Notes: generated by a model from the letters alone, not told the origin. Shown: positions 1,369-46,052, numbered from the stretch's first letter. The stretch: 46,052 nt of DNA from a virus (IMGVR_UViG_2671180885_000005), one strand, 5' to 3'. Translations and numbers: made by a program.

Positions 1369-1444
1369 GCCGATATAGCTCAGTTGGTAGAGCAGCGCAT
1401 TCGTAATGCGAAGGTCGTAGGTTCGACTCCTATTATCGGCACCA
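1369..1444 (+). tRNA. thrW: tRNA-Thr (anticodon CGU)
   Basis: 76-nt sequence GCCGATATAGCTCAG...TCGGCACCA with a 7-nt anticodon loop UUCGUAA (anticodon CGU), TPsiC-arm GGTTCGACTCC and encoded 3' CCA. Confidence 0.9.
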
Positions 1445-1454
1445 TTAAAATCAA
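1399..1454 (+). repeat. attL: 56-bp direct repeat, 3' part of thrW plus 10 bp downstream
   Basis: ATTCGTAATGCGAAGGTCGTAGGTTCGACTCCTATTATCGGCACCATTAAAATCAA occurs identically at 1399..1454 and 36724..36779; an integrase gene abuts this copy. Confidence 0.85.
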
Positions 1455-1458
1455 TAAG

Positions 1459-2622
1459 TTACACATCATTAGTACCTTCCTTATTTTTTGACTGGGACAA
1501 ATTTGGGACCGATGGGTTCAGGATCAAGTCTATTTGCCGTGCGTGTTCGGTAAGGTGATTAGGTGCAAGGTGAGCATATCGACGAACCATTTCGATAGAC
1601 TCCCAGCCTCCCATTTCCTGTAACACTGACAACGGGACTCCGGCTTGAACCAGCCAACTTGCCCAGGTGTGTCTCAAGTCGTGAAATCTGAAATCATCAA
1701 TACCAGCCCGTCTCAGCGCCGCTTTCCAGGCTGTGTTTGCGTCATACCGCATCTTCCTTACTGTTGGCGCTTTCGTTCCGTCTGGTTTGGTACAGCTTTC
1801 CTTGTACACAAATACCCAACGGTGATGATTCCCGATTTGTTTTTTCAATACGCGACATGCAGTATCATTCAGCGCAACGCCAATTGCGCGGTTTGATTTA
1901 CTCTCTTCCGGGTTTATCCATGCCACCCGGCGCTGCATATCTATTTGTTGCCATTCAAGGTTGATGATGTTCGAGCGTCTTAAGCCTGTTGCCAGTGCAA
2001 ATTCAACAACAGACTTTAATGGCTCCGGACATTCATCAATCAGCCTTTGTGCTTCATGGGGCTCCAGCCAGCGGATCCGTTTATTCTTTGGTTGAGGCAC
2101 TTTAATAATTGGTGCCTTATCCAGCATTTTCCATTCACGCTCTGCGGCTCTTAGTAGGGCCTTTATAAATGAAAGATGCGTAGCCTTCGTTGCAACGGAC
2201 GCTGGTTTTGGCGTGTATTCTGGAACAGGTTTCCCTTTTTTTCTGCATGCTTCTGCCCTGAGTTTCCAGTTTTCCTCATGACGCCGGTTCGTCATTTTCT
2301 GCATTGCTGAATAAATTTTTGATTCAGTAATGTCTCTTAGTTGCATTCCTGCGAAATGTTGAAGCCAGAATCCGATCCGGCTTTTGTCATCGTCAAGTGA
2401 TTTTTTATGTGCTTTCTCTTCAAGCCACCTGACACACGCTTCCTCGAACGTTATATCAGGTATTTCACCAAGTTTGCTGACCCGCCATGCTTCAGCCTTT
2501 AGCTTGTCATGGAGTTCTGTCGCCTGCCTTTTGTCCTTTGTTCCAAGAGACTGTTTAAATCTTTTACCGTTCGGCAATGTGAAACTGGCGTACCATATTT
2601 CACCTCTGCGGAAGAGTGACAT
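1459..2622 (-). CDS. int: tyrosine-type site-specific integrase
   Basis: 387-aa ORF next to attL, transcribed toward the tRNA; C-terminal catalytic region [39 protein letters not shown] (R..HxxR..Y pattern). Confidence 0.9.
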
Positions 2623-2849
2623 TTTCTTTCCTCTGTTATGCCATCACCCGCGCTCACCTGGACAGTATGCAGCGGAGACTGAAGAGCCGCAATGCAGGCT
2701 TGTCGTGTTGTGAGGTAAGGAGATTTATTCTTAGTGGGATCTTTGCGTGTTGCCTGAAGACGCCCTGTGCGTATCCAGTTAATAGCAGTCGGTCTGGATA
2801 TCTTGAGAAAATGACAGGCCTCATCGAGTGTGAGGCTGTATGGCTCCAT
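2499..2849 (-). CDS. xis: excisionase-like HTH DNA-binding protein
   Basis: Internal ATG at 2849 ([31 protein letters not shown]...) preceded by AGAGGTG; the HTH region resembles Xis/AlpA-type proteins; the 3' end overlaps int, as lambda xis does. Confidence 0.55.
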
Positions 2850-3193
2850 TATTTCACCTCTTGCTGTGACATTGTTGAAAAATGGATACCAGCTCGTTGC
2901 TGCCAGACGATCCAACCGAGAGTCATATCCCATGCCATGTATTCGTTATCGCCGTTTTTTGCTCTCCGACGATCGACTGTTTTACCGAAACGCTTTTCCA
3001 TAAATAATTCATAGGCTGCGCGTTCATCTGGCTCAACTTCCAGAGATGCCAGTGCAATCCGTGCCAGTTCTAAATCATTTTCAAGCTCAGCGCGAATCTC
3101 AGCGAATGCACTCTGTGTTAAGGTGAACTCAATGCTCTGCACTTTATTCCGTGCGCGCTCAAGCAGTGCATGGTAGTTAATTTCGGTTGTCAT
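2849..3193 (-). CDS. hypothetical phage protein (114 aa)
   Basis: ORF with a strong SD (GAGGTAGGGG) before the ATG at 3193; its stop overlaps the xis start (TAATG). Confidence 0.6.
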   Translation of the reverse strand: MTTEINYHALLERARNKVQSIEFTLTQSAFAEIRAELENDLELARIALASLEVEPDERAAYELFMEKRFGKTVDRRRAKNGDNEYMAWDMTLGWIVWQQRAGIHFSTMSQQEVK

Positions 3194-4068
3194 ACCCCTA
3201 CCTCTTCGAATTCCAATTCCAATTGATCACCCCAGATTTCACATGACTCTGAACACGAGCCGGTATCGAATCGCCTGGCCTGTACCATCGCCTGATACAA
3301 ATTTCTGTAGTCGCTGTTGGCAGACATTCTGGCAATTCCGTCAAGCGTCAGGTGACCACGGTACATAATGTCTTTACCTGTTCTGCGATGATCATCCCTG
3401 ACGTGTTTGCCTGTAACCAGCTCATTAAAAACTCGCATCAGACCTGGTTCGTCTTTACATGCAAGCCCCAGCTTTTGCGTTGACTTTTTGATGCAGAAAA
3501 CACAGTTCCCGAGATGCTCCGGGATTTGCAAATCAAAAGGTTGTTTTCGCCACCACCGGATAACATCCGACTTATCAAAATCTGACAGCTCGGCAAGATA
3601 CCGGACGCCCGATTTCGGTTTCAGCCTACGGGGTTCGTCTGCACGAATACCCAGCCATGTGATGTAATTACCTCGCCCGAAATGGTTATCGCAGTATTTC
3701 GTGAAAGGGATGAGTTTTAGCCTGTCAGTACAGAACGCGCCGCCGATGTATGGCGTGCCGTACTTTTTAACCATGTCCATAAACGGTTTAAGCACCGGCA
3801 TTCGTGTCTGAATATCCTTTGGCTCCCATTCTGTATAACCATTTGGCTGCCCAAGCTCAGGATTTATATCGACCTGTAACACAGTTAGTGGTATGTCCCA
3901 GAACTTCACAACCTCCCGGATAAAGCGGTATGTCAGCGGATGTTCGCAACCGGTATCCATAAAGATGTAGCAGACGTTATTGCCAGCCTTTCTTTGTTCT
4001 TCCATCAGGTGAACAAGATATGCGGATGTTCTCCCGCCAGAAAAACTAACTACATGAGTTATGCACAT
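3190..4068 (-). CDS. PAPS reductase-family PP-loop ATPase
   Basis: Translation from the internal ATG at 4068 (MCITHVVSFSGGRTSAYLVHLM...) shows an SGGxxS PP-loop-like motif typical of the PAPS reductase / adenine-nucleotide alpha-hydrolase superfamily; start chosen to avoid a long overlap with the upstream gene. Confidence 0.75.
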   Translation of the reverse strand: MCITHVVSFSGGRTSAYLVHLMEEQRKAGNNVCYIFMDTGCEHPLTYRFIREVVKFWDIPLTVLQVDINPELGQPNGYTEWEPKDIQTRMPVLKPFMDMVKKYGTPYIGGAFCTDRLKLIPFTKYCDNHFGRGNYITWLGIRADEPRRLKPKSGVRYLAELSDFDKSDVIRWWRKQPFDLQIPEHLGNCVFCIKKSTQKLGLACKDEPGLMRVFNELVTGKHVRDDHRRTGKDIMYRGHLTLDGIARMSANSDYRNLYQAMVQARRFDTGSCSESCEIWGDQLELEFEEVGV

Positions 4069-4595
4069 TTGCGTAATTCCGATAACTCGTTGAAGCGTTC
4101 CATAAACATCCCGTAGGCATGGCCCGGTGCCAGTGGAATAACTTTGAACATCTCTGTTGCCGGGATACCTTCCAGTACAGGCCATAAAGAGCCATCATCA
4201 AGCCCGAGATCACGGCGTTCGGTTGCCAGCATAATGAGATCGGCATATTTCACTGGCGTGCTCATAACAGGAGGTAACCCGTATTTCTCACGGATTACTG
4301 CATCTATTTTTTCTTCCATCCGTTTATAGTCAGGAAGAAGGCGTTTCAGTGGTGCGGGGATGTCCTGGCAATACGCTTCTGTTGCATCATGCATTAACGC
4401 TTCAAAAGCAAATTCCTGTGGCACCAGCTGGCTGCAAAGCACCGCATGTTGGGCGACACTGTAGAAGTGAGAAAGATGACCGGCAAAGCGGCAGATATTT
4501 GAAAGGGAAACCGCGATATCGTTAATCACGATGTCGTCTTTATTTATCTTGTCATAATAAAAATGCTTCCCGGAAAAAGTTTTAATAAATGACAT
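4059..4595 (-). CDS. HD-domain phosphohydrolase (YfbR-like 5'-deoxynucleotidase family)
   Basis: ATG at 4595 preceded by GGAGA; H...HD motif (HFYSVAQHAV...LMHDATEAY...DIPAPLK) resembles YfbR-type HD nucleotidases. Confidence 0.7.
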   Translation of the reverse strand: MSFIKTFSGKHFYYDKINKDDIVINDIAVSLSNICRFAGHLSHFYSVAQHAVLCSQLVPQEFAFEALMHDATEAYCQDIPAPLKRLLPDYKRMEEKIDAVIREKYGLPPVMSTPVKYADLIMLATERRDLGLDDGSLWPVLEGIPATEMFKVIPLAPGHAYGMFMERFNELSELRKCA

Positions 4596-4722
4596 TTTGT
4601 TCTCCACGTATATGCGCTGCACCGCGCTGAGTTTGGGTAAAAGGAAGCCCTCACCATCCGGTGATTATTGAGTTAATTACGTTTCCATAAATGCCCCCGC
4701 AGGGGCATTTGCAGTAATGAAA

Positions 4723-5547
4723 TCAGGCGGTGAAAGTACCAATAAAGGTTTCTACTTTGCTGTCTTTGAATTTCTCAACAAGCAGATCACGAAATTCGTT
4801 AGCCATATCTTCCTGCACCGCTTCCAGCTGAATAATGCGCAGAACCAGTACAGGACGATCGCCAGTGATAATGCTGAGGCGTAATTTAAACGGACGTTCT
4901 TTCAGACCTTCAAACGGAACGCATTTAAATTCAAATGCCACTGGCATAATGTCTTTGGTCTTCGCTTCGACAGATTCCATCAGGGAGCGTTTGCCGCTGA
5001 AGTCATTATCTTCAAAATCAGCGGTCTGGTTTGCTTCAATCGTGATTTTACGGATTGCCGCAGCCGCTTTTGTTGCCTGAATGGCATCACCATTAGCATC
5101 AAAGCCCACAAGGTAGTCGGCCCAGTCTTCGATCCATTCTGCCAGTGACTTCTGGGAGTTACGCTCGCCGTTAACAGACAACAGAGCAGAGAACGGTGCT
5201 GTCTTTTTCAGTTTGAGAGTGGCAGTGTTATCTGCGTGACCTGGCTCATCAATAGTACCCAGGTTAAGCACACTGACGGCACGCATATTATCGGCATCGA
5301 TAAAGCAGCGGGTGCCTTCATCTGCAAGATCTTTAGAATAACGGGTAAAGTCATCGATGCTGGCAGTGGAAAGCGCACCACGGAAACGGAAGCGATTTAA
5401 ATTAAATTTTTCCAGATCATGAATGCGGAAATTCTCAGGCAATGCCACAGCATCGGCACCAATCTTACTGATAATTTCATTAACACCCTGAGCAGAAATA
5501 AGGGCATGGATTTGATTAATTGCGGTTGCGTCTAAGTTCTGAGACAT
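4723..5547 (-). CDS. DUF2303 / YfdQ-family phage protein
   Basis: 274-aa ORF, SD GAGGA before the ATG at 5547; sequence resembles the YfdQ family of E. coli prophages as I recall it. Confidence 0.75.
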
Positions 5548-5612
5548 AATAAGTCCTCACTATATAAAGATATTCAGTGATGAGATAAATAATCAGTTTA
5601 TTAAGAACGATA

Positions 5613-5975
5613 TTAACGACCTGCTGCGCGGAGTTTTCCGTCAGGCTCACCGGCAAGAGTCAGTAATTGTCCCTGGTCTTCCTGCAGAATAGTCAGGCGA
5701 CCACCGCGATTGACATACATCGGCGTTTCGGTGGTGTCTTCTTCGGAAATTTTCCCACGGTTAGTCGGGCGAACATATGAGAGTTTGTGTTTGATTTTCA
5801 CACGGTTCTCATCAAATGGTTCGATTTCCAGGTTGAGTGAGACCTTACCTTTGGTTTTCGTGTTCATCACACCGGAAGCGACTTCACTGAGAACTGCGCC
5901 GATTTTGGTTTCAAATACGCCGCCGTCCAGCTCCCCGATAAATGCCTGCACATCAGTACTGCGTTCGCTAGCCAT
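5613..5975 (-). CDS. hypothetical phage protein (120 aa)
   Basis: Internal ATG at 5975 (MASERSTDVQAFIGEL...) with AGGAG 9 nt upstream; the longer 226-aa ORF in the track runs through a GC-rich region with no start signal. Confidence 0.6.
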   Translation of the reverse strand: MASERSTDVQAFIGELDGGVFETKIGAVLSEVASGVMNTKTKGKVSLNLEIEPFDENRVKIKHKLSYVRPTNRGKISEEDTTETPMYVNRGGRLTILQEDQGQLLTLAGEPDGKLRAAGR

Positions 5976-6575
5976 TTTGCTGCTCCTCATCATATCGACC
6001 CTGCAAGGCCGATTAGTTTCTCCACAAAACAGAGAAGAACACCTGCGGTGGCAGCCGCCCGGATGGATTGGGTTATGAGCCCGTCGTCCGGTGATGCTCT
6101 TCTCTGTTTTGTAAAAAGAGCGGTACCAGCCGGAAGCAAGGGTACAAACTGGTACCGCCAGGACTACACACAGCATAAAGTTGTGGTGCCGGGTGCCTCC
6201 CGGTGCCTGGCGAAGGTTGCACACCAGACGGGTGGGTATCCACAGAAGGTCGACTGTCAGCCTCAACCTTAACCCGCGTGCGCTGAGCCGCATTCACCAC
6301 AACGCTAAGGATTCTCTCTGGTTGAAAATACTTAGCTGTTATGTGCCTGTCTTTTCACCACTTCAGGCTCGGTGGTATCCTTTTAAGCCCGTATACATAA
6401 AAGGAAAATCAAATGACTTTTGATGAAAAAGAACTTGATAATGCAATTAATAAAATCATCGTAACGTCGCTCTTTTCCTGTCTCAGCGACACTCAGCAGA
6501 AACAGTTCTACGAATCGGCTTTCAACATGATCGAGCGTTGTTGTTTCTGCGATGCCGACGAGTTACCTGAAAAAA

Positions 6576-6851
6576 TCAGGAAACAGTTGGCTGATGCTCT
6601 TCGAGTGCGACTTTCTGACCAATTTTCTGAAATGTGCTCTCCGAATTTGGACAAATAGAAAAAGGCCATTTCCATTCAGGGTCTGATGGAAATACTTCAG
6701 CCTGTTCCAAAGCACGGTGTAAAGAGAACACAACTCCAGCCATAATCTGATGTTTCCCATTGGTCCAGCTATCGCCGCTCTGATCTACAGGAGCGGCTAT
6801 GTCGTATGACCAAACGACTTCACCACTATTGTTTAAAATCTGGACTTTCAT
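6576..6851 (-). CDS. hypothetical protein (91 aa)
   Basis: ORF with GGAGG SD before the ATG at 6851, immediately after the upstream minus-strand gene; its 3' end overlaps antisense with the plus-strand ORF 6413..6658, so only one may be real. Confidence 0.45.
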   Translation of the reverse strand: MKVQILNNSGEVVWSYDIAAPVDQSGDSWTNGKHQIMAGVVFSLHRALEQAEVFPSDPEWKWPFSICPNSESTFQKIGQKVALEEHQPTVS

Positions 6852-6859
6852 TTTGTTCT

Positions 6860-7063
6860 TTAACCTCCAGATTTCCGCGCATCTAAAGGCGCATTCTCAT
6901 TTGGTGTGAACTGAATAGTTGTGCTGATATTGATTAATGCCCCGACACACAAGACTACGCACTCAGAGCAGATAGCAACTTCATCTTTTCCGCCTTTGGC
7001 GATGATTTTTTTTGCCTGCAGCTCGTTTGCGCTACAAAACGAGCATGTGAAATAACGGTTCAT
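6860..7063 (-). CDS. small protein with ClpX-type C4 zinc-finger motif
   Basis: MNRYFTCSFCSANELQAKKIIAKGGKDEVAICSECVVLCVGALI resembles the ClpX N-terminal zinc-binding domain (CSFC...CxxC); start uncertain between 7063 and 7081. Confidence 0.55.
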   Translation of the reverse strand: MNRYFTCSFCSANELQAKKIIAKGGKDEVAICSECVVLCVGALINISTTIQFTPNENAPLDARKSGG

Positions 7064-7168
7064 TTGCGCTCTCTTACACATAGTATTTAACGAATCATCC
7101 GGTCATTCATACGCCACCGGCGGCTACTTCGTGGGCGTCCTGCCTGTTCGTTATCTTTGATATAAAAT

Positions 7169-7247: not shown

Positions 7248-7874
7248 TTAGAGTTCGTATTGAACTCCTTTGACTACACCAATGATAAGGCAATTACCAT
7301 TGATAGGGATGTTGGGATACCGAGGATTTAATGGCACTAAAAACTTTTGAGGGCCATCGATGACTAATTTTTTTACTGTAGCTTCGTTTGTTCCATCAAG
7401 TCGAGCGATGACTATTTTTCCATGACGAGGTTCTGCATCTGGATCTACAATCACTGTTGCGCCTTCTGGTATTGTTGGGAGGCCATTAGGGTTAGTCATG
7501 GAGTCACCTTTAACCTCTAATGCAAATGAGTTATCACCAATCTTTAATGATGTATCTACCCACTTGTCCACTTCACTAAACACTTCTGCTGCCCTGCACT
7601 CAGTAAACTGCCCAGCCTGAACCCACGATATTACAGGAACTCTGCGCATGTTTGTGACGAGTTTGCCTTCAAACTCAGCACCATAAAGAATGTAATCTAT
7701 TGACGTATTGAAGAACTTCGCTAATTTCGAAAGTGCCTCCCCACCAGGGGTATTGATGTCTTTCTCCCAGTACCCCACAGCAACGTCGCTTACTCCACAA
7801 AATTTACCCAATTCTTTCTGGGACGTTCTGGTAACTCTTCTCAGAGCTTTTATACGCTGACCAACCGTTTCCAT
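7248..7874 (-). CDS. cI: CI-like prophage repressor (HTH-XRE plus S24 LexA-like peptidase domain)
   Basis: N-terminal HTH (QKELGKFCGVSDVAVGYWEKD), C-terminal S24 autoprotease motif (GDSMTNPNG...K); divergent from a cro-like gene. Confidence 0.9.
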   Translation of the reverse strand: METVGQRIKALRRVTRTSQKELGKFCGVSDVAVGYWEKDINTPGGEALSKLAKFFNTSIDYILYGAEFEGKLVTNMRRVPVISWVQAGQFTECRAAEVFSEVDKWVDTSLKIGDNSFALEVKGDSMTNPNGLPTIPEGATVIVDPDAEPRHGKIVIARLDGTNEATVKKLVIDGPQKFLVPLNPRYPNIPINGNCLIIGVVKGVQYEL

Positions 7875-7971: not shown

Positions 7972-8172
7972 ATGACAACTGACGATATCGAAAGCTACTT
8001 CGGCAGTATTGAGAAAGTTGCTGCTTTTTTCGGCATAACAACTGAAGCCGTTTATCAGTGGCGAAACCGTCCGGGCCAGTTAATTCCAAAAGGACGTGCA
8101 GCAGAAGCTGCATATAGAACTTGCGGACGGTTGCCATTTAAACCTGAGCTTTATGAAAAATCTAATGGATAA
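7972..8172 (+). CDS. cro: Cro-like / YdaS-like HTH regulator
   Basis: 66-aa ORF divergent from cI, SD GGAGGG before the ATG; HTH segment FGITTEAVYQWRNR. Confidence 0.75.
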   Translation: MTTDDIESYFGSIEKVAAFFGITTEAVYQWRNRPGQLIPKGRAAEAAYRTCGRLPFKPELYEKSNG

Positions 8173-9105: not shown

Positions 9106-10047
9106 ATGAGCACTAAATTAACCGGCTATGTATGGGATGGTTGCGCAGCGTCAGGCATGAAATTATCCAGCGTGGCAATTATGGCCCGCCTGGCTGATTT
9201 CAGTAATGACGAAGGTGTGTGCTGGCCATCAATTGAAACCATTGCCCGTCAGATTGGCGCGGGGATGAGTACCGTCAGGACGGCTATCGCACGGCTGGAA
9301 GCAGAAGGCTGGTTAACGCGTAAGGCGCGTCGCCAGGGTAACCGCAATGCGTCGAATGTTTATCAGCTTAACGTTGCGAAGCTTCAGGCAGCGGCATTTT
9401 CTCAACTGTCAGATTCTGACCCGTCAAAATCTGACGCATCAAAATCTGACCCGTCAAAATTTGATGCGTCGAAATCTGGCAAAAAAGCGGGTTTTCACCC
9501 GTCAGAATCTGGCGGGGATCCGTCAGTAAAATCAAAACATGATCCGTCAGATAAAAAACCTTCTCGTCCGGACGCTTCGCAACCGGACACGCAGACGGCT
9601 GAACAGTATTTTTTAACTCGCCATCCTGATGCGGTTGTATTCAGCCCTAAAAAGCGCCAGTGGGGGACGCAGGATGATTTGACCTGCGCACAGTGGCTCT
9701 GGAAAAAAATCATCGCCCTGTACGAGCAGGCCGCCGAATGTGACGGCGAGGTGGTTCGTCCCAAAGAACCGAACTGGACAGCCTGGGCAAACGAAATTCG
9801 CCTGATGTGTGTGCAGGATGGTCGTACTCACAAACAAATCTGCGAGATGTACAGCCGCGTCAGCCGCGATCCGTTCTGGTGCCGTAACGTGCTCAGCCCG
9901 TCGAAGCTGCGGGAAAAATGGGATGAGCTTTCCCTGCGCTTATCGCCGTCCGTAAGCACGTACACCGAAAAACGCGAAGACCCGTACTTCAAATCCAGTT
10001 ACGACAACGTGGACTACAGCCAGATCCCGGCAGGATTCAGGGGGTGA
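9106..10047 (+). CDS. phage replication initiation protein (O-like, N-terminal winged-helix)
   Basis: 313-aa ORF; N-terminal DNA-binding region (IETIARQIGAGMSTVRTAIARLEAEGWL); contains an internal array of ~15-bp iterons as in lambda O/ori. Confidence 0.8.
   Translation: MSTKLTGYVWDGCAASGMKLSSVAIMARLADFSNDEGVCWPSIETIARQIGAGMSTVRTAIARLEAEGWLTRKARRQGNRNASNVYQLNVAKLQAAAFSQLSDSDPSKSDASKSDPSKFDASKSGKKAGFHPSESGGDPSVKSKHDPSDKKPSRPDASQPDTQTAEQYFLTRHPDAVVFSPKKRQWGTQDDLTCAQWLWKKIIALYEQAAECDGEVVRPKEPNWTAWANEIRLMCVQDGRTHKQICEMYSRVSRDPFWCRNVLSPSKLREKWDELSLRLSPSVSTYTEKREDPYFKSSYDNVDYSQIPAGFRG
9406..9557 (+). repeat. iteron array (candidate origin of replication) inside the O-like gene
   Basis: Repeated ~15-bp units CCGTCAAAATCTGAC / GCATCAAAATCTGAC / CCGTCAAAATTTGAT / GCGTCGAAATCTGGC / CCGTCAGAATCTGGC / CCGTCAGTAAAATCA / CCGTCAGATAAAAAA visible in the sequence. 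Confidence 0.7.
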
Positions 10048-13231: not shown

Positions 13232-13248
13232 TTTGGTGGAGAAAGTTG

Positions 13249-15062: not shown

Positions 15063-15184
15063 TATCGATCCGAAATAATTTTAGCAACCGTGTGAAAAAT
15101 ACAACAAAAAAAAGAGGAAATCATTAGCGCGGTCCGCAAAAAACATTGTAATCTGTTAAGAGTGGTTACTTCGCCACACAGCTT

Positions 15185-15685: not shown

Positions 15686-15688
15686 TTT

Positions 15689-34871: not shown

Positions 34872-34874
34872 TCC

Positions 34875-35624: not shown

Positions 35625-36229
35625 TGACCACAAATGAAATCACCTTAGACGAAAACGGATTTGCCACTGAGGCGGGATTTATTACCGTTTACAACTACAA
35701 TGGCGAACCCCATGAATATATTGGTTCAACTGTTGAATATCTGCCGGTTGGCGTTGGCGTTCCAGCTGATTCCTGCGTTGATGCGCCAGGCAGCAAAAGA
35801 GACGGTTTCGCAATCTGCCGCAATGCTGATTTAACCGGTTGGGAATACGTTGCAGATCATCGCGGCGAAACCGTTTACAGCACGGCTACTGGCAAACCTG
35901 TGACTGTTTCACAATTGGGAGAATACCCGGAAGGAACCACCACCAAACCGCCATCTACTCCATACGACAAATGGGATGGACAAAAATGGGTTGCCGACGA
36001 CGACGAGAAACACGCGGCGGATGTGGCAGCGGCAGAGCAACAGAGAAAAAATCTGCTGAACTCCGCAAATTCAAAAATCAGTCTGTGGCAAACGGAACTA
36101 CAGTTAGGCATTATCAGCGATGAAGATAAAGCAAGTCTGATTTCCTGGATTGGCTACATTAAGGCGGTGACGGCAACAGATACCAGCACCGCGCCGGATG
36201 TCATCTGGCCTGAACTGCCGGAGGCGTAG
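35624..36229 (+). CDS. tail fibre assembly protein (Tfa)
   Basis: 201-aa ORF directly after the tail fibre gene; Tfa-like termini. Confidence 0.75.
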   Translation: MTTNEITLDENGFATEAGFITVYNYNGEPHEYIGSTVEYLPVGVGVPADSCVDAPGSKRDGFAICRNADLTGWEYVADHRGETVYSTATGKPVTVSQLGEYPEGTTTKPPSTPYDKWDGQKWVADDDEKHAADVAAAEQQRKNLLNSANSKISLWQTELQLGIISDEDKASLISWIGYIKAVTATDTSTAPDVIWPELPEA

Positions 36230-36723
36230 GCCATTCAATATCTGGTGCACTGGATGTATCAACCAGTTCCAGTGCTTCCAGATAATCCAGCCACAAATTA
36301 TATTGCATCAGGAGTTTCTCGCCAGAAGGTGGGATCATCTATGATGTTGGCGTATCGACTTTGTATAAGAAGTTTCCGGTCGGAGATGAATGAAACCGCA
36401 GACACGCCGTATGCAAGAACGTGCTGCGGCTGGCTGGCGAACTTTCGATAGTGCGAGTATTGAATGATTTCCAGCCGTTACCGATTTTACTATGTTTTCA
36501 GTAGAACACTCAGACAAAACTGAGATACACAAAGCTTTGCACTGGATTGCAAGGCTTTGTGCTCTTCTGTGAATGTGTGGCTATATGTTTGAAGATCGTT
36601 GTGCCGTATTTGTGACATATATATGGCAACATCATGCATCAACTTTCTGTTTGTGCCATCAACTATAGCTTAGTGAATGCGGTTAATGCTTGCTAAAACA
36701 GATAGTTATGATTGGTGCTACAG

Positions 36724-36779
36724 ATTCGTAATGCGAAGGTCGTAGGTTCGACTCCTATTATCGGCACCATTAAAATCAA
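36724..36779 (+). repeat. attR: second copy of the 56-bp thrW 3'-end repeat
   Basis: Identical to 1399..1454. Confidence 0.85.
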
Positions 36780-37150
36780 ATTGTTACGTAAGATCTTATC
36801 ATTCTCCCACCAAAAAATTATCTTAATGTAACAGCTGGTGTAAGTAAATTCTATCAACGAAGATCAATCTTATCTACTGACCAAAAAGGCCTGATAGGGC
36901 TTCGCTCACTATACATCCTTGGCTGCAGGTTTAGTTGTACACCACTCCTAAATTTAATGTGTTGGCAATGTGTTCAATAAAGCTCGAACAAATTAGCTCA
37001 TTATGATCGGTTAATACTTCAACTTCTGGTTGCATGATTGTTTGTCCGTAAAAAGATAACGCGCCTGCCGGGTAGTAGCAGGCGCATTACGCAATAGGTA
37101 AACAAGGGAGGAAGTTCAGAAATGTAAATCGGGAAGGTTGTACGCAATGT

Positions 37151-37830
<680 letters not shown>

Positions 37831-37848
37831 TACAGTTCTCCACTATTG

Positions 37849-38070
37849 TCAGTTCAGGGTGATGCTCATCAGGCAGGTATAGGGCCCATTGCGGTCCTGG
37901 CGGCGTTCGGCGTATACCGCGAGGACTCCGGCGATATCCGGAACGTCCCTGCCGGTGTAATGACAGACGCTACCGTGCCACTGGTATTTGCCGGTGCAGT
38001 AGCGAAAGATTCGGGACTCAGGATGCTGGCGGTATATCGTCATTGCCCTGCGTTTACTGATAATTTTCAT
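37849..38070 (-). CDS. DUF987 protein (YkfH/YeeT-like)
   Basis: ATG at 38070 with GAGGT SD; small conserved ORF between the RadC-like and antitoxin genes. Confidence 0.7.
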   Translation of the reverse strand: MKIISKRRAMTIYRQHPESRIFRYCTGKYQWHGSVCHYTGRDVPDIAGVLAVYAERRQDRNGPYTCLMSITLN

Positions 38071-38078
38071 GTAATACC

Positions 38079-38555
38079 TCAAAGCAGACCGTGTTCTGCG
38101 AACGAATAGATTTGCCTGCCACCGACAATCAGATGGTCAGGGACACGGATATCCACCAGCTGAAGCACCTGAACCAGTCGCTGCGTGAGGGTTTTGTCGG
38201 CCTGGCTAGGTGTCGTCTCGCCGGAAGGATGGTTATGCGCGAGTATCACCGCCGCCGCGTTGAAGTGCAGAGCACGTTTGACCACCTCCCGGGGATGCAC
38301 CTCGGTGCGGTTAATCGTGCCGGTGAAGAGCGTTTCATGGGCAATCAACTGATTCTGGTTGTCCAGATACAACACCCGGAACTCTTCCCGCTCAAGCGCG
38401 GCCATATGCAGTCGCAGCCATTCACGTACGGCGTGGGTAGAGGTGAAGGCTACGCCGGGCTCATGCAGGTGGCGGTCCAGAGCCCTGAGCGCCCGCTGAA
38501 TGAGACGCCGGTCCTGTGGCGTCATCTCGCCGGGTAAAAAGGAAAGCTGTTTCAT
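38079..38555 (-). CDS. RadC-like JAB-domain protein (YkfG/YeeS-like)
   Basis: JAMM motif region (HNHPSGETTPSQAD). Confidence 0.85.
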   Translation of the reverse strand: MKQLSFLPGEMTPQDRRLIQRALRALDRHLHEPGVAFTSTHAVREWLRLHMAALEREEFRVLYLDNQNQLIAHETLFTGTINRTEVHPREVVKRALHFNAAAVILAHNHPSGETTPSQADKTLTQRLVQVLQLVDIRVPDHLIVGGRQIYSFAEHGLL

Positions 38556-38570
38556 CTGTTGCTCCTTCGG

Positions 38571-39029
38571 TCAGTCGATAATACGCAGAATGGCGTGAGC
38601 CTCTGGATGTTGCATGGCATACTCCCGCAGGCGGTAATAGTGTGCGGTCATCGCGTCACATTCTGTACGGCAGGCATGGTGGCTATACGCAATCAGGCAG
38701 ACAGCAATACCTGCTGCTTCTGCACTCATTTGGGCATCGTTACCGTTCAGGCAGTTAAACAGACGCCATGTCTCATCGTTGTCAGGCTCGGGGGACATAA
38801 ATGCGCCGCCATTGCTGAGGGTGTAGAACGACCAGATACCACCGCTGTAGCCCTCACAGAAGCGGTCCATCCAGGCGAAGATATGCGGCTCCAGGAGTAG
38901 CCACTGCGGGATAGCGCCAAAGTACTGTGGCCAGAAATCGATACGCTGTTCATCGGGGACCGGCGTGACGGTCAGTTCAAATTCGGGTTGGTTAGCGGGT
39001 GCGAGGTCGTGCTGCGTCTGTGTTGTCAT
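38571..39029 (-). CDS. antirestriction protein (YafX/YfjX-like)
   Basis: ATG at 39029 after GGAGA; conserved position and sequence of the island antirestriction family. Confidence 0.75.
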   Translation of the reverse strand: MTTQTQHDLAPANQPEFELTVTPVPDEQRIDFWPQYFGAIPQWLLLEPHIFAWMDRFCEGYSGGIWSFYTLSNGGAFMSPEPDNDETWRLFNCLNGNDAQMSAEAAGIAVCLIAYSHHACRTECDAMTAHYYRLREYAMQHPEAHAILRIID

Positions 39030-39126
39030 GGGTATGTCTCCGTCAATAAAAACGCCAGCGGCGATGGCTGGCGTATGGGGATATAAAGTGTGTTCGGGGA
39101 GGTGAATGCGGGTAAATGCTTCGCGA

Positions 39127-39366
39127 TCAGCGGGTGGCCGTGTCTGTACGGATGCCTGAGGTGCGGATATAGCGGTTAAGACCTTCACCGGCATCCGGCT
39201 CAAAGTTCCATGCCCGCCAGACCATCCGGCCTTCAGTATCACGAACCACCAGACGGAAGTGACTGCCCTGGTCGTCTTCGAGTGTGATATTGCTGTACGT
39301 GGTAGTGACCGCTTGCGCTTGTCTCCGGGTGAAAGGCCCCGGTGGCAGCAACACGGATTGGGTCAT
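39127..39366 (-). CDS. DUF905 protein (YkfF-like, 79 aa)
   Basis: ATG at 39366 after AGGAG; [43 protein letters not shown]... matches my recollection of YkfF. Confidence 0.75.
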
Positions 39367-39442
39367 TTTCGGGCTCCTGATAAAAGAAAACCCCGGCAGC
39401 CTGCTAGCTGTCGGGGTGGATTTGCTGGGGAAGATACTACTA

Positions 39443-39910
39443 TCAGTCGTTGCTGCAGTCTCCGAGAGTGGACAGAACTTTCTCAGCGTTCTTCCGGTCC
39501 GCAGTGAAGGTCCCTGCTTTGTGGTCATTGACGTAGACGTCGAACTGCCCGGCCTCAGAGATATTGCTGATGAAGTCAAACCAGGCGTTATCGCCGTTAC
39601 GCCAGCCCAGGCTGGACGGAATAATGTACTGCTGGTGATCCATCACTACGGTGATAGTAGTGTCGTCATCGTGCGAACTGACCATCTTGTCATCGGCAAG
39701 GGTAAGAAAGACTGAATGCTGATAGAAACCATTCTGGTCCGGGTTCCCTGTGCAGTTGATGGTAAACGTCTTTCCGCTGGCTTCGGTCACGCTGTATTCC
39801 GTATTGCCCTGACCGTAACCCTGCTGCCAGAACCCCGGGATAGCAGAGGCATTAAAGCTCGCGAGCAGTACACCCGCCAGCATAAACCGACTTAGTGAAA
39901 GTATTGTCAT
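39443..39910 (-). CDS. secreted protein of unknown function (YkfB-like)
   Basis: 155-aa ORF with N-terminal signal peptide ([23 protein letters not shown]). Confidence 0.7.
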
Positions 39911-39938
39911 TCTTGTCTCCTTTGTCGTTGTTTTATTC

Positions 39939-40376
39939 CTAGTTCTCAGGGTTTGAGGGTATCAGCAGTCGCCCCATCAGTTTGCCGTCATGGGCGTACT
40001 CAAAGTATTTTTCTTTGGTATACGGGTCCGTCACCTCCTGGTATTCCAGTTTGATGTTATCGGCAATACACAGCGCATTCATCAGTGGCTGGACGGTTTT
40101 TTCCTGCATATCCACGAGGTAGTAGTAACTGCCATCCTCGCAGCCATCGGGCGACTGGCGGGTACGTAAAACCTGCAAGGTGGGACCGGATAAGTAGTCA
40201 ACCTGTGACCATTCTTCGCTGACATCATCCTGGTGGCTGACCACATCACTGAAACGCGGTGGGGTAAGGTCCTTAAATTTACTGATGGCCTTCAGGTCAT
40301 CACTTCTGTCATCGCATGCGATGAGAAACAGAGTGGTGGCAACCAGCGCCAGCAGAGGCAGTGTTTTACGTTTCAT
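39939..40376 (-). CDS. lipoprotein (YafY-like)
   Basis: N-terminal lipobox MKRKTLPLLALVATTLFLIAC. Confidence 0.7.
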   Translation of the reverse strand: MKRKTLPLLALVATTLFLIACDDRSDDLKAISKFKDLTPPRFSDVVSHQDDVSEEWSQVDYLSGPTLQVLRTRQSPDGCEDGSYYYLVDMQEKTVQPLMNALCIADNIKLEYQEVTDPYTKEKYFEYAHDGKLMGRLLIPSNPEN

Positions 40377-40612
40377 TATTTTTTTCCTGAAATCAGACGA
40401 ACCACTTTGGCAAAGACATAAATGCCCACGAAAATACCCACCGGCACGCCGACGAACGGTGTCAGCGCGACACTGGCAGCACCGGCTGCGCCACCTCCCG
40501 TCAGCAGTGCGGCAACAGTGGCAAGGGTCAGGGCCGCGAGACTGTCGGACACCCCGGTTTTGTTCAGAATGATGACGATGACAACAATGGCGATAATGGC
40601 AATAACGGGCAT
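40376..40612 (-). CDS. small membrane protein (78 aa; YkfL/YpjK-like)
   Basis: ATG at 40612 after GGAGG; highly hydrophobic. Confidence 0.55.
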   Translation of the reverse strand: MPVIAIIAIVVIVIILNKTGVSDSLAALTLATVAALLTGGGAAGAASVALTPFVGVPVGIFVGIYVFAKVVRLISGKK

Positions 40613-40652
40613 AGGGCTCCTCCCTGTTGCCGGGTTGATAACAACGCTTACG

Positions 40653-41354
40653 CTATTCTGGTGGGCTGTCGGCCGGAACAAACGTAAGCAGTGACTGCTG
40701 GATAAAGCGAAAATGGGGTAAGGACTGAATAAAGCCCGGGTCTTCAACAAGACGACACAGACTGTCGTTACGCCGGAAAGTCTCCTGCAGGGGCTGAACC
40801 AGATGGATTTCATCCAGGGAGAATACGGCGATATGTCCGTCGTGCTCTGCCACCAGATACCAGGCCTGCTGGTGGATAAGTAACCGGCAGGGAGCCAGCC
40901 GCTCACAGCGTCGCCCCTCGGCAATCAGAGTCACCCGCCTGCGCCCGGTAATGGCCTGAATCAGTCGCCAGAAAGACAATGCGCCTGATGGCGAAGGAGA
41001 CGGACTGGCGGGTGCGATTACGCAGGGAGACTCATCGCACATCAGCAGTGCGTTTACCAGACGACGGTCAAAGCCAGGGAAAAGACCGGCCATCCCGCTG
41101 CGGTGGGCAAAGATAAGCACGTCGGGCACCATCTGCGTCTCACTGCCCGCAGTGCGTAAGCGGCAATATCCGGACTGATACTCCAGGTCCAGATACATCA
41201 GCCGCTCACGAAAATCACGCCGCAGCGTGCGCACCGACACACCAAACTCAGCGGCAAGCTTACGCACACTCAGCGTTTCCCCTGCCACCAGACGGCTGAT
41301 TATCAGTGACAGCCTGACAGCCAGCCGGTCATGGCGGCGTTCTGCCTGTGTCAT
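40653..41354 (-). CDS. HTH plus WYL-domain transcriptional regulator (YfjR-like)
   Basis: N-terminal HTH ([21 protein letters not shown]) and a C-terminal WYL-like region ([15 protein letters not shown]). Confidence 0.65.
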
Positions 41355-41570
41355 GAGACGTTCTCCGTGAAAGTTAACTGACTGAAAATGATGTGATTAC
41401 TTTAAAGAGGGGGTCGGACAGGGTATGGACACCACAGAAACTATTTTTCATTTCTGCAAAAGCCAGAGGCAGCGGGGGTTACAGGCCTTCCCTCGGTGAG
41501 TGAGGACCGTCAGCACGGTGCGATGCGGACAGGTGGTGTCCGATATTAACAAAGCAGCAACATTAAACGG

Positions 41571-42407
41571 TCACTGCAGTTGCGTGAGCAGGGCTTCCGC
41601 CATCACCCACAGTGCCCGGTTAAGTTTCACGTCCCCGTCGATACCGCGAACGGCACGGGTATGTGACCGTCCTCCTTTGGCATTACGGCCACTGAGCCCG
41701 CCCTTAATCAGGTTCTCCTGAATACGCTGGTACGTGGTCCACAGGTCATTGCTCTCATCCTGCCAGCGGCGAGGGGAGAGGATCTGCGATTCAGTCACCG
41801 GCTGGTGGTCTTCACCAAAGCGGTATGTGAGGGCGGCTTTTGCCAGTGCCTGCTGTGCCGGGGGTGGCAACAGCAACGACTGCATGGCATCCCGTTTCTC
41901 CTCCACCCGGTCAAAAATCCCCAGCACCTCATACGCGCCTTCAATCACCTGACTTACCACGTCCCCCTTGTGTGGCACCCGCACCTCGCCAAACGACTCA
42001 CCGCAGACGAGCCCGTTCTGACAAACCGCACGAAATAAACCCGGCAACATCTGGTACGAACTGGTGCCATCATGGGAGTTGAGCAGGATAATTTCTGGTA
42101 CCTGTTTACCGGTAATCTGCCCCTCCCGACGAAGGCGTAGCATGTGTTTTGTGTGCTCGCGTCGACCCGGGTCGCGTACCCGGGTCTGACAGGCAAAGAA
42201 CGGCTGGAAGCCTTCGCGCTGCAGGCTGTCCAGCAGGGATATGGTGGGTATATAGGTATAACGCTCACTACGGGATGCGTGTTTGTCCTCACTGAATACA
42301 CTGGGCACCACGCGAAACAGCTCTTCGCGGGTTAACGGGCGGTCGCGACGGATAAGATTTGCTGCGCCAAAGCGCGAAGCCAGACGGGTCATAAGCAGAC
42401 TCCTCAT
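41571..42407 (-). CDS. DUF932-family protein (YafZ/YfjQ-like)
   Basis: 278-aa ORF in the conserved position after the GTPase. Confidence 0.75.
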   Translation of the reverse strand: MRSLLMTRLASRFGAANLIRRDRPLTREELFRVVPSVFSEDKHASRSERYTYIPTISLLDSLQREGFQPFFACQTRVRDPGRREHTKHMLRLRREGQITGKQVPEIILLNSHDGTSSYQMLPGLFRAVCQNGLVCGESFGEVRVPHKGDVVSQVIEGAYEVLGIFDRVEEKRDAMQSLLLPPPAQQALAKAALTYRFGEDHQPVTESQILSPRRWQDESNDLWTTYQRIQENLIKGGLSGRNAKGGRSHTRAVRGIDGDVKLNRALWVMAEALLTQLQ

Positions 42408-42483
42408 AACGGGAAAACAAATAAAAGGGATCCCCGTCGCATCGGCGACAGGGGCAGGGAAGTAACAGGGATGGGTTAAATAC

Positions 42484-43347
42484 TCAGAAGAAGAAATCCC
42501 AGACGGCGCGGGCCACTGACACCACCGTGGTGCGCACGGCCTGAATGACAGCCCGTACCGGGGCGGGTATCAGGGGAAAGGCACTGATGCTATCGAGTAC
42601 GGCCCCGACGGTTTCACCAAAATCGCTACGAGCCTGTTCCCGGACTACCGTCGTGCGAAAGGAAGACTGGAGTTGCGACACCACCGGGCTGGTGGCCTCA
42701 CGTGGCAGGCACTTAATCATTCGCTCGGCCATCACCCGCAGTCCCCACTGAAGACGGACCGACACGGCACACACCGGATGTACGGGCTGGAACAGCTCAT
42801 GCAGCAGACAGATTTTACGGCTGATATTCTGCTTCTGCGCCGTGGACAACGGTCCCCCACCGCTGGTGGGTTCGGCCTTATCCGACTGGCTGATAACAAA
42901 CAGCACCTTATGCCGGTATACCTCTCCAATCACCTGATGATAAAAATGTTCATCCACCGCCAGCGCCCGGTCATCGGCCTTAATCAGCCACAGTACCAGG
43001 TCGAGGCGAGGAAGCTGTTCGCGGTACAGCGCAGCATACTCGGTATCGCGAGCACCACTTTCGCCCACGCCGGGCAGGTCCACCAGCGTCATATAGCGGT
43101 CGCCGACTTGCAGGCGAAAGCGCAGTGGCTCACGGGTACATGCAGCCACATCGCTGACCGGTGATATATCTCCGGCAAACAGGGCATTGCACAGACTGCT
43201 CTTCCCAACACCGGTTTTACCCATAATGCCGATCACTGGCTCGTAGCGGGTTAACTGATTTATCTGCTGCAATATACGTTCAGACACCCACTGTGGCAGA
43301 CCAGCGAGCGATTGCTGAAACGGCTTCAATCCTTCAGAATTGTTCAT
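42484..43347 (-). CDS. GTPase (YkfA/YfjP family)
   Basis: ATG at 43347 after GAGGAG; P-loop GKTGVGKSS and DLPG motif. Confidence 0.8.
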   Translation of the reverse strand: MNNSEGLKPFQQSLAGLPQWVSERILQQINQLTRYEPVIGIMGKTGVGKSSLCNALFAGDISPVSDVAACTREPLRFRLQVGDRYMTLVDLPGVGESGARDTEYAALYREQLPRLDLVLWLIKADDRALAVDEHFYHQVIGEVYRHKVLFVISQSDKAEPTSGGGPLSTAQKQNISRKICLLHELFQPVHPVCAVSVRLQWGLRVMAERMIKCLPREATSPVVSQLQSSFRTTVVREQARSDFGETVGAVLDSISAFPLIPAPVRAVIQAVRTTVVSVARAVWDFFF

Positions 43348-43453
43348 TACTACTCCTCTGAAAAATAATACAAAAACGGCAGAATCGTGAGATTCCACCG
43401 TTAATCTGGTATGTTCAAAGGGATGATATATATCTGAAAATTATTAACTTGAT

Positions 43454-44380
43454 CTACTTTTTGTCTTTTTTACGTGATGAAACAGCCTGCTGCCAAGCAT
43501 GCTTCATTTTCTGAATAAAGAAATATTTTTCTTCAACTCCAGTGTCCCAACTATCCATGCATGCAATGATCATCTGTATTCTCATTGCAGGGTTATATGG
43601 TTTTAAATAAAAGGGGATCATATTTTTATTTCTCAGATACTCCCAGCAATAGATAGCTTGCTTTTCATCTTTTTTATCTAGCCAGTCATAATCAGTAAGA
43701 AATGTATTATATTGCTCTAGCCATTTATCATGCAACTTACGAAAATAGGAAATTTTCTGACTTAAACTTACAGGAGCTAAATCAATAAACCTCATCAAAG
43801 TACAAATGCGTTCTTGTTCGGATGTTGTATTCGGGCTGTAGTTGTCGGGATCTGCGCCAGATGTTAAATAAAATCTACGCGAGTATTTTTCAGGTATATC
43901 TCTATTTTTTTCTTTATTGCTAGGGGAGATTCCCACCTGCATTTCGGCTTGTACTTCATCAAGTGAGAAATTTTTAATTTCATCAATGTTTATAAATTCA
44001 AAAAAGGATGCAGGAGTTGAGTTCGGGTTGTAAATATTATCTTGTGCAAAGATATTCACGCTCGAGGAGGTTTCAGGACTGATTCTGTTGTTATATATAT
44101 ACATTAAGGCAAACCACGATCCTCTATCAGAACCTTTGAAGCAATCGAACTTCTCTTTGTCAATGATTTTGTAATGGAACTGTTTTTTCAAGTAAGTACG
44201 CGCACTTTGTATTGCTTCATTATTGAATAGGAATTTAGTGTTCAATATATGATTAATGAGTTTTTGAAATTCCTCAGGCGTGTCGAAATTACTCGCCTGC
44301 TTAATGTAATCTTCGTTGTAATACAGACTCAGAACGTAAAGGGAAAAGAACTCCTCTCTCACTTCGTCATACCTAAGCAT
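43454..44380 (-). CDS. hypothetical AT-rich protein (308 aa) heading the GTPase operon
   Basis: Long ORF, visibly AT-rich; no family recognised; occupies the slot where CP4-57 carries rnlAB. Confidence 0.55.
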   Translation of the reverse strand: MLRYDEVREEFFSLYVLSLYYNEDYIKQASNFDTPEEFQKLINHILNTKFLFNNEAIQSARTYLKKQFHYKIIDKEKFDCFKGSDRGSWFALMYIYNNRISPETSSSVNIFAQDNIYNPNSTPASFFEFINIDEIKNFSLDEVQAEMQVGISPSNKEKNRDIPEKYSRRFYLTSGADPDNYSPNTTSEQERICTLMRFIDLAPVSLSQKISYFRKLHDKWLEQYNTFLTDYDWLDKKDEKQAIYCWEYLRNKNMIPFYLKPYNPAMRIQMIIACMDSWDTGVEEKYFFIQKMKHAWQQAVSSRKKDKK

Positions 44381-44829
44381 GTACCCTCCAGTGTGATATC
44401 ACATCTGTCCGATGCTTTCAAAAGTATAAATGAACCATGATGATTTGGCATCTGCAAGGTGACTGTTGACTGGTTTTTTGCTGATTTTTTAATGATAAAG
44501 TAGTGATTACTAACTGATTAGTAAGTGATTAATGGCTGGTTGCCTCCTGTGATTTTTCTGCCTCTGGTAAATTGGGGGAGAGTACTGATCAACTCACCAC
44601 TCTGAATAATTTTCATGATTGCACTCTACAAAGTTTCGACATCCGTCAAATTGTAACGGTCAGAGAACAGCGTTACACGAGGTTTTCCGTATCTATGCAT
44701 TCTTAGTTGGGTAGCTCAACTGCTCCTTCCAGATCTTTTTTTACGTCACACCCCATTCATGTGGAGGAGAAGGCGTGAACAATTAGTTATCGCCTGCTCC
44801 GGTGCTCTTCTCGCAATGGGACACTCAGC

Positions 44830-45036
44830 ATGAAAACTAAACCTGCACTACTGGAAGATGAGTTCATCGATATGAAGTTTATCACACGCCTTACTGGCCT
44901 GAGTGATAAATGGTTCTATAAGTTGATACAGGAAGGGGTATTTCCGAAACCCATTAAGATGGGTAGAGCTTCTCGCTGGTTAAAAAGCGACCTGGAGGAG
45001 TGGTTGCAGGCTAAAATTAATGATTCCAGAAATTAA
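44830..45036 (+). CDS. alpA: AlpA-family phage regulatory protein / excisionase
   Basis: FITRLTGLSDKWFYKLIQEGVFPKPIKMGRASRWLKSDLEEWL is a typical AlpA HTH. Confidence 0.8.
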   Translation: MKTKPALLEDEFIDMKFITRLTGLSDKWFYKLIQEGVFPKPIKMGRASRWLKSDLEEWLQAKINDSRN

Positions 45037-45440
45037 ATATTTTGGACTGTGTTTATCAAATTCCATGCCCTTTTTGCTGCTTAATTTTAAATGACACTCT
45101 GATCATGCACCGTGATTGAAATAAGTTATAGCCACCCCTTAATCATTTTTTTCAGACGACATTAACTTCGGAGTAAATAATTTAACACAATGAAATATCA
45201 AACCGCATCTGGCCTGAATGTTGAGTATTAATACGTGACGGATTGTTAATATATATCAGTACATAAACCCCAACATTCCAGTAATACACACCTACGCAAT
45301 ACACACCAAGCAATTTAGTCAGCATCACCCAACTAACATCCAACACAAACTCAATAAGCCAGATTTGATACCACCTAATTACCTCAACCATCGCGGGTAA
45401 GGTTCCGTCCTGCCCGATATTCATATCACAGGAATCTATT

Positions 45441-46052
45441 ATGCTTAATGATATTTATCTTGACCAACGTCATGCCCCATTCAATACAACGTATTTGCAA
45501 CGGATGCTGGGTGTAATTGATAACGCTATAGCACAACACCCAAGGACAATGGCTGTCCGTGTCGATCTACGTCTGCCTGATGACAACTGTAATAGGAATA
45601 GTGGTCTGATATCCCGTTTCATTGAATCGCTTAATGCAAAAATCGATGCTCGGTACCGAAATAAAATAAAGAATGGCATCAGGAGCTACCCATGCCAGTT
45701 GCGTTACGCCTGGGTTCGGGAAGTGGGAGAAATAAACGAGAAGTCCCATTACCACATGGTACTTTTCGTGAACAAAGACACATTCAATGGACTTGGGAGC
45801 TATGGAGAAGGGGGAACGGGATTAGCCAGCCTGATACGTGAAGCCTGGCTGAGCGCTTTGCAACTAGGCCCTTACCCCGAATACCGAACGTTGGTCCACA
45901 TCCCGGACAACCCATTGTATTACCTGGACGTCAATAATTTAGACTACAAAACGGTTTACGATAAGCTCACTTTCCGTCTGAGCTACTTTGCGAAAGAGCG
46001 CACCAAGTCATACAGCCGGAATGAACGCTCGTTTGGCTGCAGTCAGTCCTGA
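45441..46052 (+). CDS. YagK/YfjJ-family (inovirus Gp2-like) protein
   Basis: 203-aa ORF ending at the window edge with a stop codon; position after alpA as in CP4-type islands. Family assignment is from memory and weak. Confidence 0.5.
   Translation: MLNDIYLDQRHAPFNTTYLQRMLGVIDNAIAQHPRTMAVRVDLRLPDDNCNRNSGLISRFIESLNAKIDARYRNKIKNGIRSYPCQLRYAWVREVGEINEKSHYHMVLFVNKDTFNGLGSYGEGGTGLASLIREAWLSALQLGPYPEYRTLVHIPDNPLYYLDVNNLDYKTVYDKLTFRLSYFAKERTKSYSRNERSFGCSQS

Follow-up and report, generated by a model that had tools for sequence, protein, structure and literature searches.

The tRNA gene thrW is a recognised hot-spot tDNA in Escherichia coli (PMC7545054), and in strain K-12 it is the location of the island CP4-6 (PMC3032704). 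In a strain with SfX resident at thrW, a newly arriving SfI phage has been shown experimentally to integrate at the SfX attL, which produces a tandem SfI + SfX lysogen (Sun et al. 2011, PMC3306764). An attP core has been published for SfI, SfII, SfV, SfX and P22, and in the Shigella phages the genes gtrA, gtrB and gtr(type) lie between the tail fibre and attP (PMC3636060). Here we examine a 46,052-nucleotide stretch of viral DNA (IMGVR_UViG_2671180885_000005, hereafter the window), in which thrW is followed by a 35.3-kb prophage and then by the beginning of a CP4-6-type island. The arrangement is best explained, with a probability of roughly 0.9, by two independent integrative elements stacked at thrW, an older island of the CP4-6 type and then a recent phage of the SfV/SfI type. 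Literature searches for a published account of the CP4-6 att sites or of CP4-6 excision yielded papers that do no more than locate CP4-6 at thrW or list intF, without att analysis. Stacking at thrW is real but ordinary and will not surprise a specialist; the main value of the locus lies in the annotation of its boundaries and in the record of a gtr-less SfV-type phage in E. coli.

Comparison with these described systems demonstrates extensive likeness as well as several differences. The prophage resembles SfI, SfII, SfIV and SfV in that its integrase is 99% identical to SfI Int, the attP core, the P' arm and the cos 10-mer are shared, the site lies beside proA, the head and Mu-like tail show 97-98% identity, and much of the early region reaches 95-96%. 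Unlike SfI, which carries approximately 2.8 kb of gtrABC between tail fibre and attP, the window has approximately 280 bp of unique non-coding sequence and a P arm common to E. coli P22-like prophages. The tail-fibre tip and the fibre assembly protein differ from those of the Sf phages after position 35178, and the early region is mosaic, the best single phage record covering no more than 67% of the left 22.5 kb. The island shares with CP4-6 of K-12 its site, its orientation and its first 12 genes, but after ykfA K-12 has perR/IS911/IS30 whereas the window has hypothetical, alpA-like and YagK-like genes. The tandem as a whole resembles the SfI + SfX lysogen in its two att-bounded elements in series at thrW, with the presumed later arrival beside the intact tRNA at the attL of the resident. 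In contrast to that lysogen, in which both partners are phages with integrases of the same family, the resident here is a decayed P4/CP4-type island whose integrase in relatives (IntF) is unrelated to the phage Int.

Prophage boundaries at thrW

A single tRNA gene was called in the window by ARAGORN, an intact tRNA-Thr(CGU) at 1369-1444 on the plus strand, which is 100% identical to K-12 thrW over positions 1-86. The chromosomal left flank of the site is proA (1-1254, plus strand), a 417-amino-acid (aa) open reading frame (ORF) that is 99.8% identical to E. coli proA and is annotated as proA in relatives. A repeat search detected a direct pair at 1399-1462 and 36724-36787 (95% over 64 nt), and blastn-short found 1399-1454 and 36724-36779 to be 100% identical over exactly 56 nt. 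The original prediction that a 56-bp thrW-derived repeat bounds the prophage was therefore exact in its coordinates. The repeat corresponds to thrW positions 31-76 plus 10 nt downstream, and its first 46 nt, present in both copies, are the published attP core ATTCGTAATGCGAAGGTCGTAGGTTCGACTCCTATTATCGGCACCA (PMC3636060), which matches the 3' part of thrW. By our own arithmetic, exact 56-mers are expected to recur by chance approximately 2e-25 times in 46 kb, which rules out a chance origin. Simple duplication or chance was likewise rejected as the source of the repeat on the basis of its flanks, each copy being flanked on one side by a phage arm and on the other by chromosome or island.

Repeat search, blastn-short and flank comparison together identify the first copy (1399-1454, plus strand) as the attL core and the second (36724-36779, plus strand) as the attR core and the phage/island boundary. 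Left of the attL core is the 5' part of thrW, and right of it are 402 nt of the SfI attP P' arm and int with 99.5% identity. The second copy, which received no tRNA call from ARAGORN, is preceded by a phage P arm of approximately 210 nt (36512-36723, plus strand) and followed by the sequence that lies downstream of thrW in K-12. The P arm contains a terminator-like hairpin at 36528-36561 and is 99% identical to the attR arm of the P22-like prophage of strain Z142-1 and 95% identical to that of the SfV-like prophage of 2017.10.01CC. When the prophage was excised in silico by joining window positions 1-1454 to 36780 onward, the product aligned to K-12 proA-thrW-ykfI over 5279 bp with 99.79% identity and 0 gaps. 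The insertion thus reads as precise, as recombination between attP and attB predicts. Among 5426 complete E. coli genomes, proA-thrW followed by this type of integrase is found in 960, while this junction of P arm, core and island occurs in only 4.

The CP4-6-like block had been proposed to begin immediately after the second repeat copy, and this is borne out by a 99.7% match to K-12 CP4-6 over 36724-40604 (3.9 kb), whose first base is also that of the repeat; a second match covers 41162-43445 (2.3 kb) at 95.9%. The exact boundaries are thereby set, the phage occupying 1455-36723 plus one copy of the core and the island extending from 36780 onward. Annotators should accordingly be cautioned that phage and island are not one 'prophage region'.

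The island as a separate insertion in thrW

Relatives of the window provide the evidence that the island is an insertion in its own right. In K-12, CP4-6 begins within thrW and ends a short way beyond intF (466 aa, minus strand; NC_000913.3, 262898-297205), and a perfect 59-nt copy of thrW 28-86 stands in direct orientation approximately 110 nt beyond the start of intF, beside yagP and 34 kb away. In strain MS6192, where the first 9.3 kb of the island are 97% identical to those of the window, thrW is directly followed by the island, and 42.7 kb away stand a pseudogene resembling intF, with 87% identity to IntF, and a thrW repeat of 50 nt. The empty site is represented by LR-24 and many other strains, in which thrW abuts yagP. 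IntF has Arm-DNA-bind_3 and Phage_integrase domains (P4-type) and is unrelated to the phage Int. An uninterrupted junction of thrW and CP4-6 is present in 368 of the complete E. coli genomes, and intF, the repeat and yagP are found together in 337, many of which are probably K-12 derivatives. Two att cores, in direct orientation, lie within the window, and a third is seen in relatives only.

The thrW 28-86 core, which is the identity block of IntF, starts CGCATTCGTAATGCGAAGGTCGTAGGTTCGACTCCTATTATCGGCACCA. The identity block of the phage, thrW 31-86, begins at the anticodon stem-loop, which suggests that strand exchange by the phage Int may take place in the thrW anticodon loop; tRNA-targeting integrases were reportedly treated by Williams in 2002.

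Not every relative retains the far end of the island. The island part of LCP17S3_I1 is 99.98% identical to that of the window, and the approximately 43 kb past the point at which the window ends contain neither intF nor another thrW repeat. Likewise, 2017.10.01CC, which has the same phage-plus-island layout, has neither within approximately 47 kb of island and flank. Both genomes have IS1 copies at the place of the K-12 intF end and lack the stretch from yagP to ecp or rcl (LCP17S3_I1, L006 15907-17761; 2017.10.01CC, L007 32460-36133). The position of the IS1 copies points to IS1-mediated deletions, and their repetition suggests that such deletions may strand the island.

Order of arrival and competing explanations

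We propose that a P4/CP4-57-style island of the CP4-6 type, the integrase of which is IntF in relatives, would have entered thrW in the older of two events. Its integration would have duplicated thrW 28-86, so that the toxin end would border a complete thrW and the far end would have a partial copy beside intF. In the second and recent event, a temperate lambdoid myovirus that belonged to the SfV/SfI type but lacked gtrABC would have circularised, and its P22/SfV-family Int would have recombined attP with the intact thrW. Because the identity block of the phage comprises thrW 31-86, thrW would have been rebuilt, and, given that the 3' two-thirds of the gene lie inside the repeated core, that part of thrW may be phage-supplied. 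The predicted result is an order that begins proA-thrW(attL)-int-xis and ends tail fibre-attR-island, with the island abutting a tRNA fragment that is no longer a gene. Excision by Int-Xis would recreate a junction of the K-12 type.

In other strains, different elements are found between thrW and the island. Z142-1 has a P22-like podovirus there and 2017.10.01CC another gtr-less SfV-like prophage, both with the same 56-nt core, while LCP17S3_I1 has a P4-like satellite with its own integrase and a 27-nt repeat (thrW 60-86). The island itself is decayed and contains insertion sequence (IS) elements, pseudogenes and metabolic or chromosomal-type cargo. The decayed island, the intact prophage, the varied proximal elements and the SfX/SfI experiment together support an old island and a recent phage, and point to the island having arrived before the phage. 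The original prediction that the phage entered a site already used by the island is likewise upheld by the gap-free excision junction, the SfI P' arm at attL, the phage-free islands of K-12 and MS6192 and the empty site of LR-24.

Several points weigh against this reading. The window stops 9.3 kb into the island, and the integrase end and distal repeat would lie outside it; the original prediction that both are located farther downstream holds in K-12 and MS6192 but fails in LCP17S3_I1 and 2017.10.01CC. The two repeat copies are identical and are therefore silent both on the order of arrival and on the crossover point. Within the prophage, the O-like gene is followed by a PerC-like ORF, and no dedicated lambda P-like helicase-loader gene was recognised downstream of the O-like gene. 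Finally, because two close relatives have lost the integrase and the distal repeat, the island here may be an immobile fossil and not a second functional occupant. We estimate at roughly one half the chance that both features are retained in this genome.

The strongest competing explanation develops this last point and states that the island lacks both its integrase and its distal repeat here, so that the phage is the sole mobile element at thrW beside an immobile remnant. LCP17S3_I1 and 2017.10.01CC, from which both features are missing together with an IS1-bordered stretch, are as such an account would have them, and the complete intF, repeat and yagP flank is kept in only the 337 of 5426 genomes mentioned above; K-12 and MS6192, however, retain both features. 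We place this state of the island slightly short of even odds. It would change only the present condition of the island and not its origin as a thrW insertion, and it is thus a sub-case of the two stacked elements.

Far less probable is the reverse order, in which the prophage came first and the island later entered the partial thrW at the prophage attR. The attR copy (thrW 31-86) holds nearly the whole IntF block (28-86 in K-12, 28-77 in MS6192) and could in principle be a secondary attB, and the sequence of a single strain gives no order of events. The state of the two elements nevertheless argues for the opposite sequence, since the island has accumulated IS elements, pseudogenes and chromosomal-type cargo, with intF a pseudogene in MS6192 and deleted in LCP17S3_I1 and 2017.10.01CC, while the prophage shows no disruption and matches isolated phages at 96-98% DNA identity. 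In addition, the island adjoins an intact thrW in phage-free strains with nothing in between, the position ahead of this island is taken up by at least three different elements depending on the strain, which fits repeated recent arrivals, and the newcomer took the tRNA-proximal position in the SfX/SfI experiment. A single composite element, with the ykfI-ykfA block as phage cargo and the inner repeat incidental, has adjacency alone in its favour and a negligible probability, for this counter-case, which the original prediction had itself raised, is refuted by the SfI genome (sequenced from the isolated phage), which runs from tail fibre and gtr to attP and int without the block genes, by the presence of the block phage-free in K-12 and MS6192 and also behind unrelated elements, and by in-silico excision at the 56-bp repeat, which reproduces a natural allele exactly.

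Gene content of the prophage

DNA comparison and PHROG profile searches indicate that the entire 35.3 kb between the repeat copies is phage. The DNA is 95-98% identical to SfI, SfII, SfIV, SfV and E. coli vB_EcoM-689R6 in a mosaic pattern, and on these similarities the prophage is classified as a lambdoid myovirus of the Shigella SfV/SfI/SfII/SfIV type. The tyrosine integrase gene (1459-2622, minus strand; 387 aa) reads toward thrW and matches the PHROG integrase profile (E=1e-120) and Pfam Phage_integrase. The excisionase gene follows at 2499-2849 (minus strand); its start was placed from the PHROG match (phrog_2907, E=1e-50, residues 29-144 of ORF 2499-2933) and from the 351-bp xis of SfI. 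The early-left operon (2849-7081, minus strand) encodes PAPS-reductase-like, 5'-deoxynucleotidase and unknown-function proteins by PHROG and is 96% identical to the SfIV and SfV early regions. The PAPS-reductase-like gene of this operon (3190-4185, minus strand) also matches the PADLOC SspD profile (E=2e-14), and its product is probably a common phage PAPS-reductase-family protein, not a defence gene. The immunity region comprises a CI-type repressor with a LexA/UmuD-like C-terminal domain (7248-7874, minus strand; phrog_4 transcriptional repressor, E=1e-55) and, divergent from it, a putative Cro-like ORF of 66 aa (7972-8172, plus strand), assigned by position and size alone. An O-like replication initiator (9106-10047, plus strand; phrog_391, E=5e-135) contains six iterons with 15-nt spacing at 9394-9516, detected by repeat search with a consensus of about TCAAAATCTGACCCG, which is the lambdoid origin to be expected there.

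The late part of the prophage begins with a Q-like antiterminator (13246-13614, plus strand; phrog_79, E=2e-46). Between Q and the lysis genes, on the minus strand, is a two-gene moron of low GC content (0.38) at 14121-15325, encoding proteins of 313 aa and 87 aa; such a location, opposite in strand to its neighbours, is the classic one for a moron. Searches of Pfam, PADLOC, NCBIfam and PDB sequences gave no match to the moron and phrog_7651 (unknown function) was the sole PHROG match, so that the pair may have a hitherto uncharacterised role in exclusion or defence. The lysis cassette (15359-16628, plus strand) consists of holin, endolysin and Rz spanin (PHROGs 126, 90 and 13). The cos 10-mer TGCCCGCCCC at 17964-17973 (plus strand) is an exact match, and the sole occurrence in the window, of the 10-nt cohesive-end sequence reported for SfI (PMC3636060). 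A 10-mer match alone is not significant, and it is the position, 42 nt upstream of terS, that carries weight. The packaging and head genes (18015-23531, plus strand) encode terS, terL, portal, protease and an HK97-type major capsid protein with PHROG E values of 1e-60 to 1e-197. They are followed at 23784-36229 (plus strand) by head-tail connectors and a Mu-like contractile tail, in which sheath, tube, tape measure, baseplate, tail fibre and fibre assembly protein were recognised by PHROG. The structural genes have ORFs of the same lengths as their annotated counterparts in SfI, and the tail region is 97-98% identical to SfI, SfII and SfV up to 35178, beyond which the fibre tip diverges. As attL, attR, int/xis and the immunity, replication, lysis, packaging, head and tail genes are all undisrupted, the original description of the prophage as complete stands in terms of gene content and cis sites, cos included, and we infer that the prophage would be inducible.

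The gtr cassette is missing from this prophage. An ORF scan of 36230-36723 found no ORF of 70 aa or more, and nothing in the window corresponds to the gtr region of SfI; homology to SfI ends at 35178 and restarts only at the core. Between the fibre assembly gene and the P arm, at the place of gtrABC in the Shigella phages, are approximately 280 nt (36230-36511), and local alignment of this segment to the SfI, Z142-1 and 2017.10.01CC prophages is limited to approximately 25 nt beside the assembly gene. Truncation was considered as the cause of the gtr absence and rejected, since no essential module is missing, both P arm and core are in place, and other E. coli prophages show the same layout without gtr. 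Judged by its gene content, the prophage is of the SfV type but not serotype-converting, and a phage of this type consequently circulates in E. coli without an O-antigen-modifying cassette.

Gene content of the island

The thrW-proximal conserved block of the island (36780-43347, minus strand) was delineated from K-12 identity, Pfam and the RefSeq annotation of relatives. Its genes, all on the minus strand, are ykfI (CbtA toxin, 37151-37492), yafW (CbeA antitoxin, 37513-37830), ykfH (DUF987, 37849-38070), ykfG (RadC, 38079-38555), yafX (antirestriction, 38571-39029), ykfF (39127-39366), ykfB (39443-39910), yafY/yfjS (39939-40376), ypjK (40376-40612), yfjR (40653-41354), yafZ (DUF932, 41571-42392) and ykfA (GTPase, 42484-43347). 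Pfam matches in the block are to CbtA, CbeA, DUF987, RadC, Antirestrict, DUF905, YfjS_YafY, a DeoR/WYL regulator, DUF932 and GTPase. The segment 40605-41161 is absent from K-12 and completes an intact yfjR-like DeoR/WYL gene in the window, whereas K-12 has the pseudogenes ykfL and ykfK, which makes the window allele the less decayed of the two.

The last 2.6 kb of the window (43454-46052) form a variable island part that is absent at this position in K-12 and present in LCP17S3_I1, Z142-1 and MS6192. It encodes a 308-aa hypothetical protein (minus strand) with no match in searches of Pfam, PADLOC, NCBIfam and PDB sequences, an AlpA-family regulator (44830-45036, plus strand; Pfam Phage_AlpA) and a YagK/YfjJ ('inovirus Gp2') family protein (45441-46052, plus strand; Pfam YagK_YfjJ_C). 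The latter two genes, alpA-like and YagK/YfjJ-like, point away from the GTPase-to-toxin block, and MS6192 has a second set of YagK, hypothetical, alpA and integrase genes at its distal end in the opposite orientation (L008 42381-46502). With this reading direction and this second set, the thrW island looks composite, composed of two island backbones or rearranged by an internal inversion.

CP4-57 and CP4-44 share a conserved island module. The island of the window resembles CP4-57 (at ssrA) and CP4-44 in its GTPase, DUF932, DeoR/WYL, YfjS/YafY lipoprotein, antirestriction, RadC, DUF987, CbeA/CbtA pair, AlpA and YagK/YfjJ genes. In CP4-57 the integrase abuts ssrA; in the thrW island of K-12 and MS6192, by contrast, it is the toxin end that borders the tRNA, and the integrase is found beside the distal repeat. 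The GTPase-to-RadC block and the alpA/YagK module also occur elsewhere, 97-99% identical, behind another toxin end with a 125-aa CbtA, DUF5983 and DUF4942 (L013, L015, L017 and L018), which indicates that island modules recombine between islands.

Other arrangements at thrW

Three mutually unrelated tyrosine integrases use nested thrW identity blocks, IntF 28-86 (or 28-77), the SfV/P22-type Int 31-86 and the P4-like satellite Int 60-86; the positions are 1396-1454 in the window, 37207-37265 in L003, 20001-20026 in L001 and 46611-46660 in L008 (MS6192). As the nested blocks 28-86, 31-86 and 60-86 give all thrW cores the same 50-56 nt, it is conceivable that phage Int/Xis, or RecA acting on the repeats, might recombine attL with the distal repeat of the island and so delete or co-excise an island without integrase. 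We regard this as quite unlikely, and the distal core of the island has no phage arm sites, which makes efficient Int-mediated recombination there improbable. Were it to occur, the intact prophage would be a mobiliser or eraser of the neighbouring island.

The genomes compared here constitute a natural allele series at thrW, with the site empty, with the island only, with phage plus island and with satellite plus island, and the series could be used to study the sequential sharing of one tRNA site. A further arrangement was observed in ECONIH5 (L009 15030-45301), where thrW is followed by a CP4-6-like block, IS-scrambled phage remnants (capsid, tail fragments and pinE), a 56-nt thrW copy at 17005-17060, IS3 and a second CP4-6-like GTPase-to-toxin block, an array that looks three deep.

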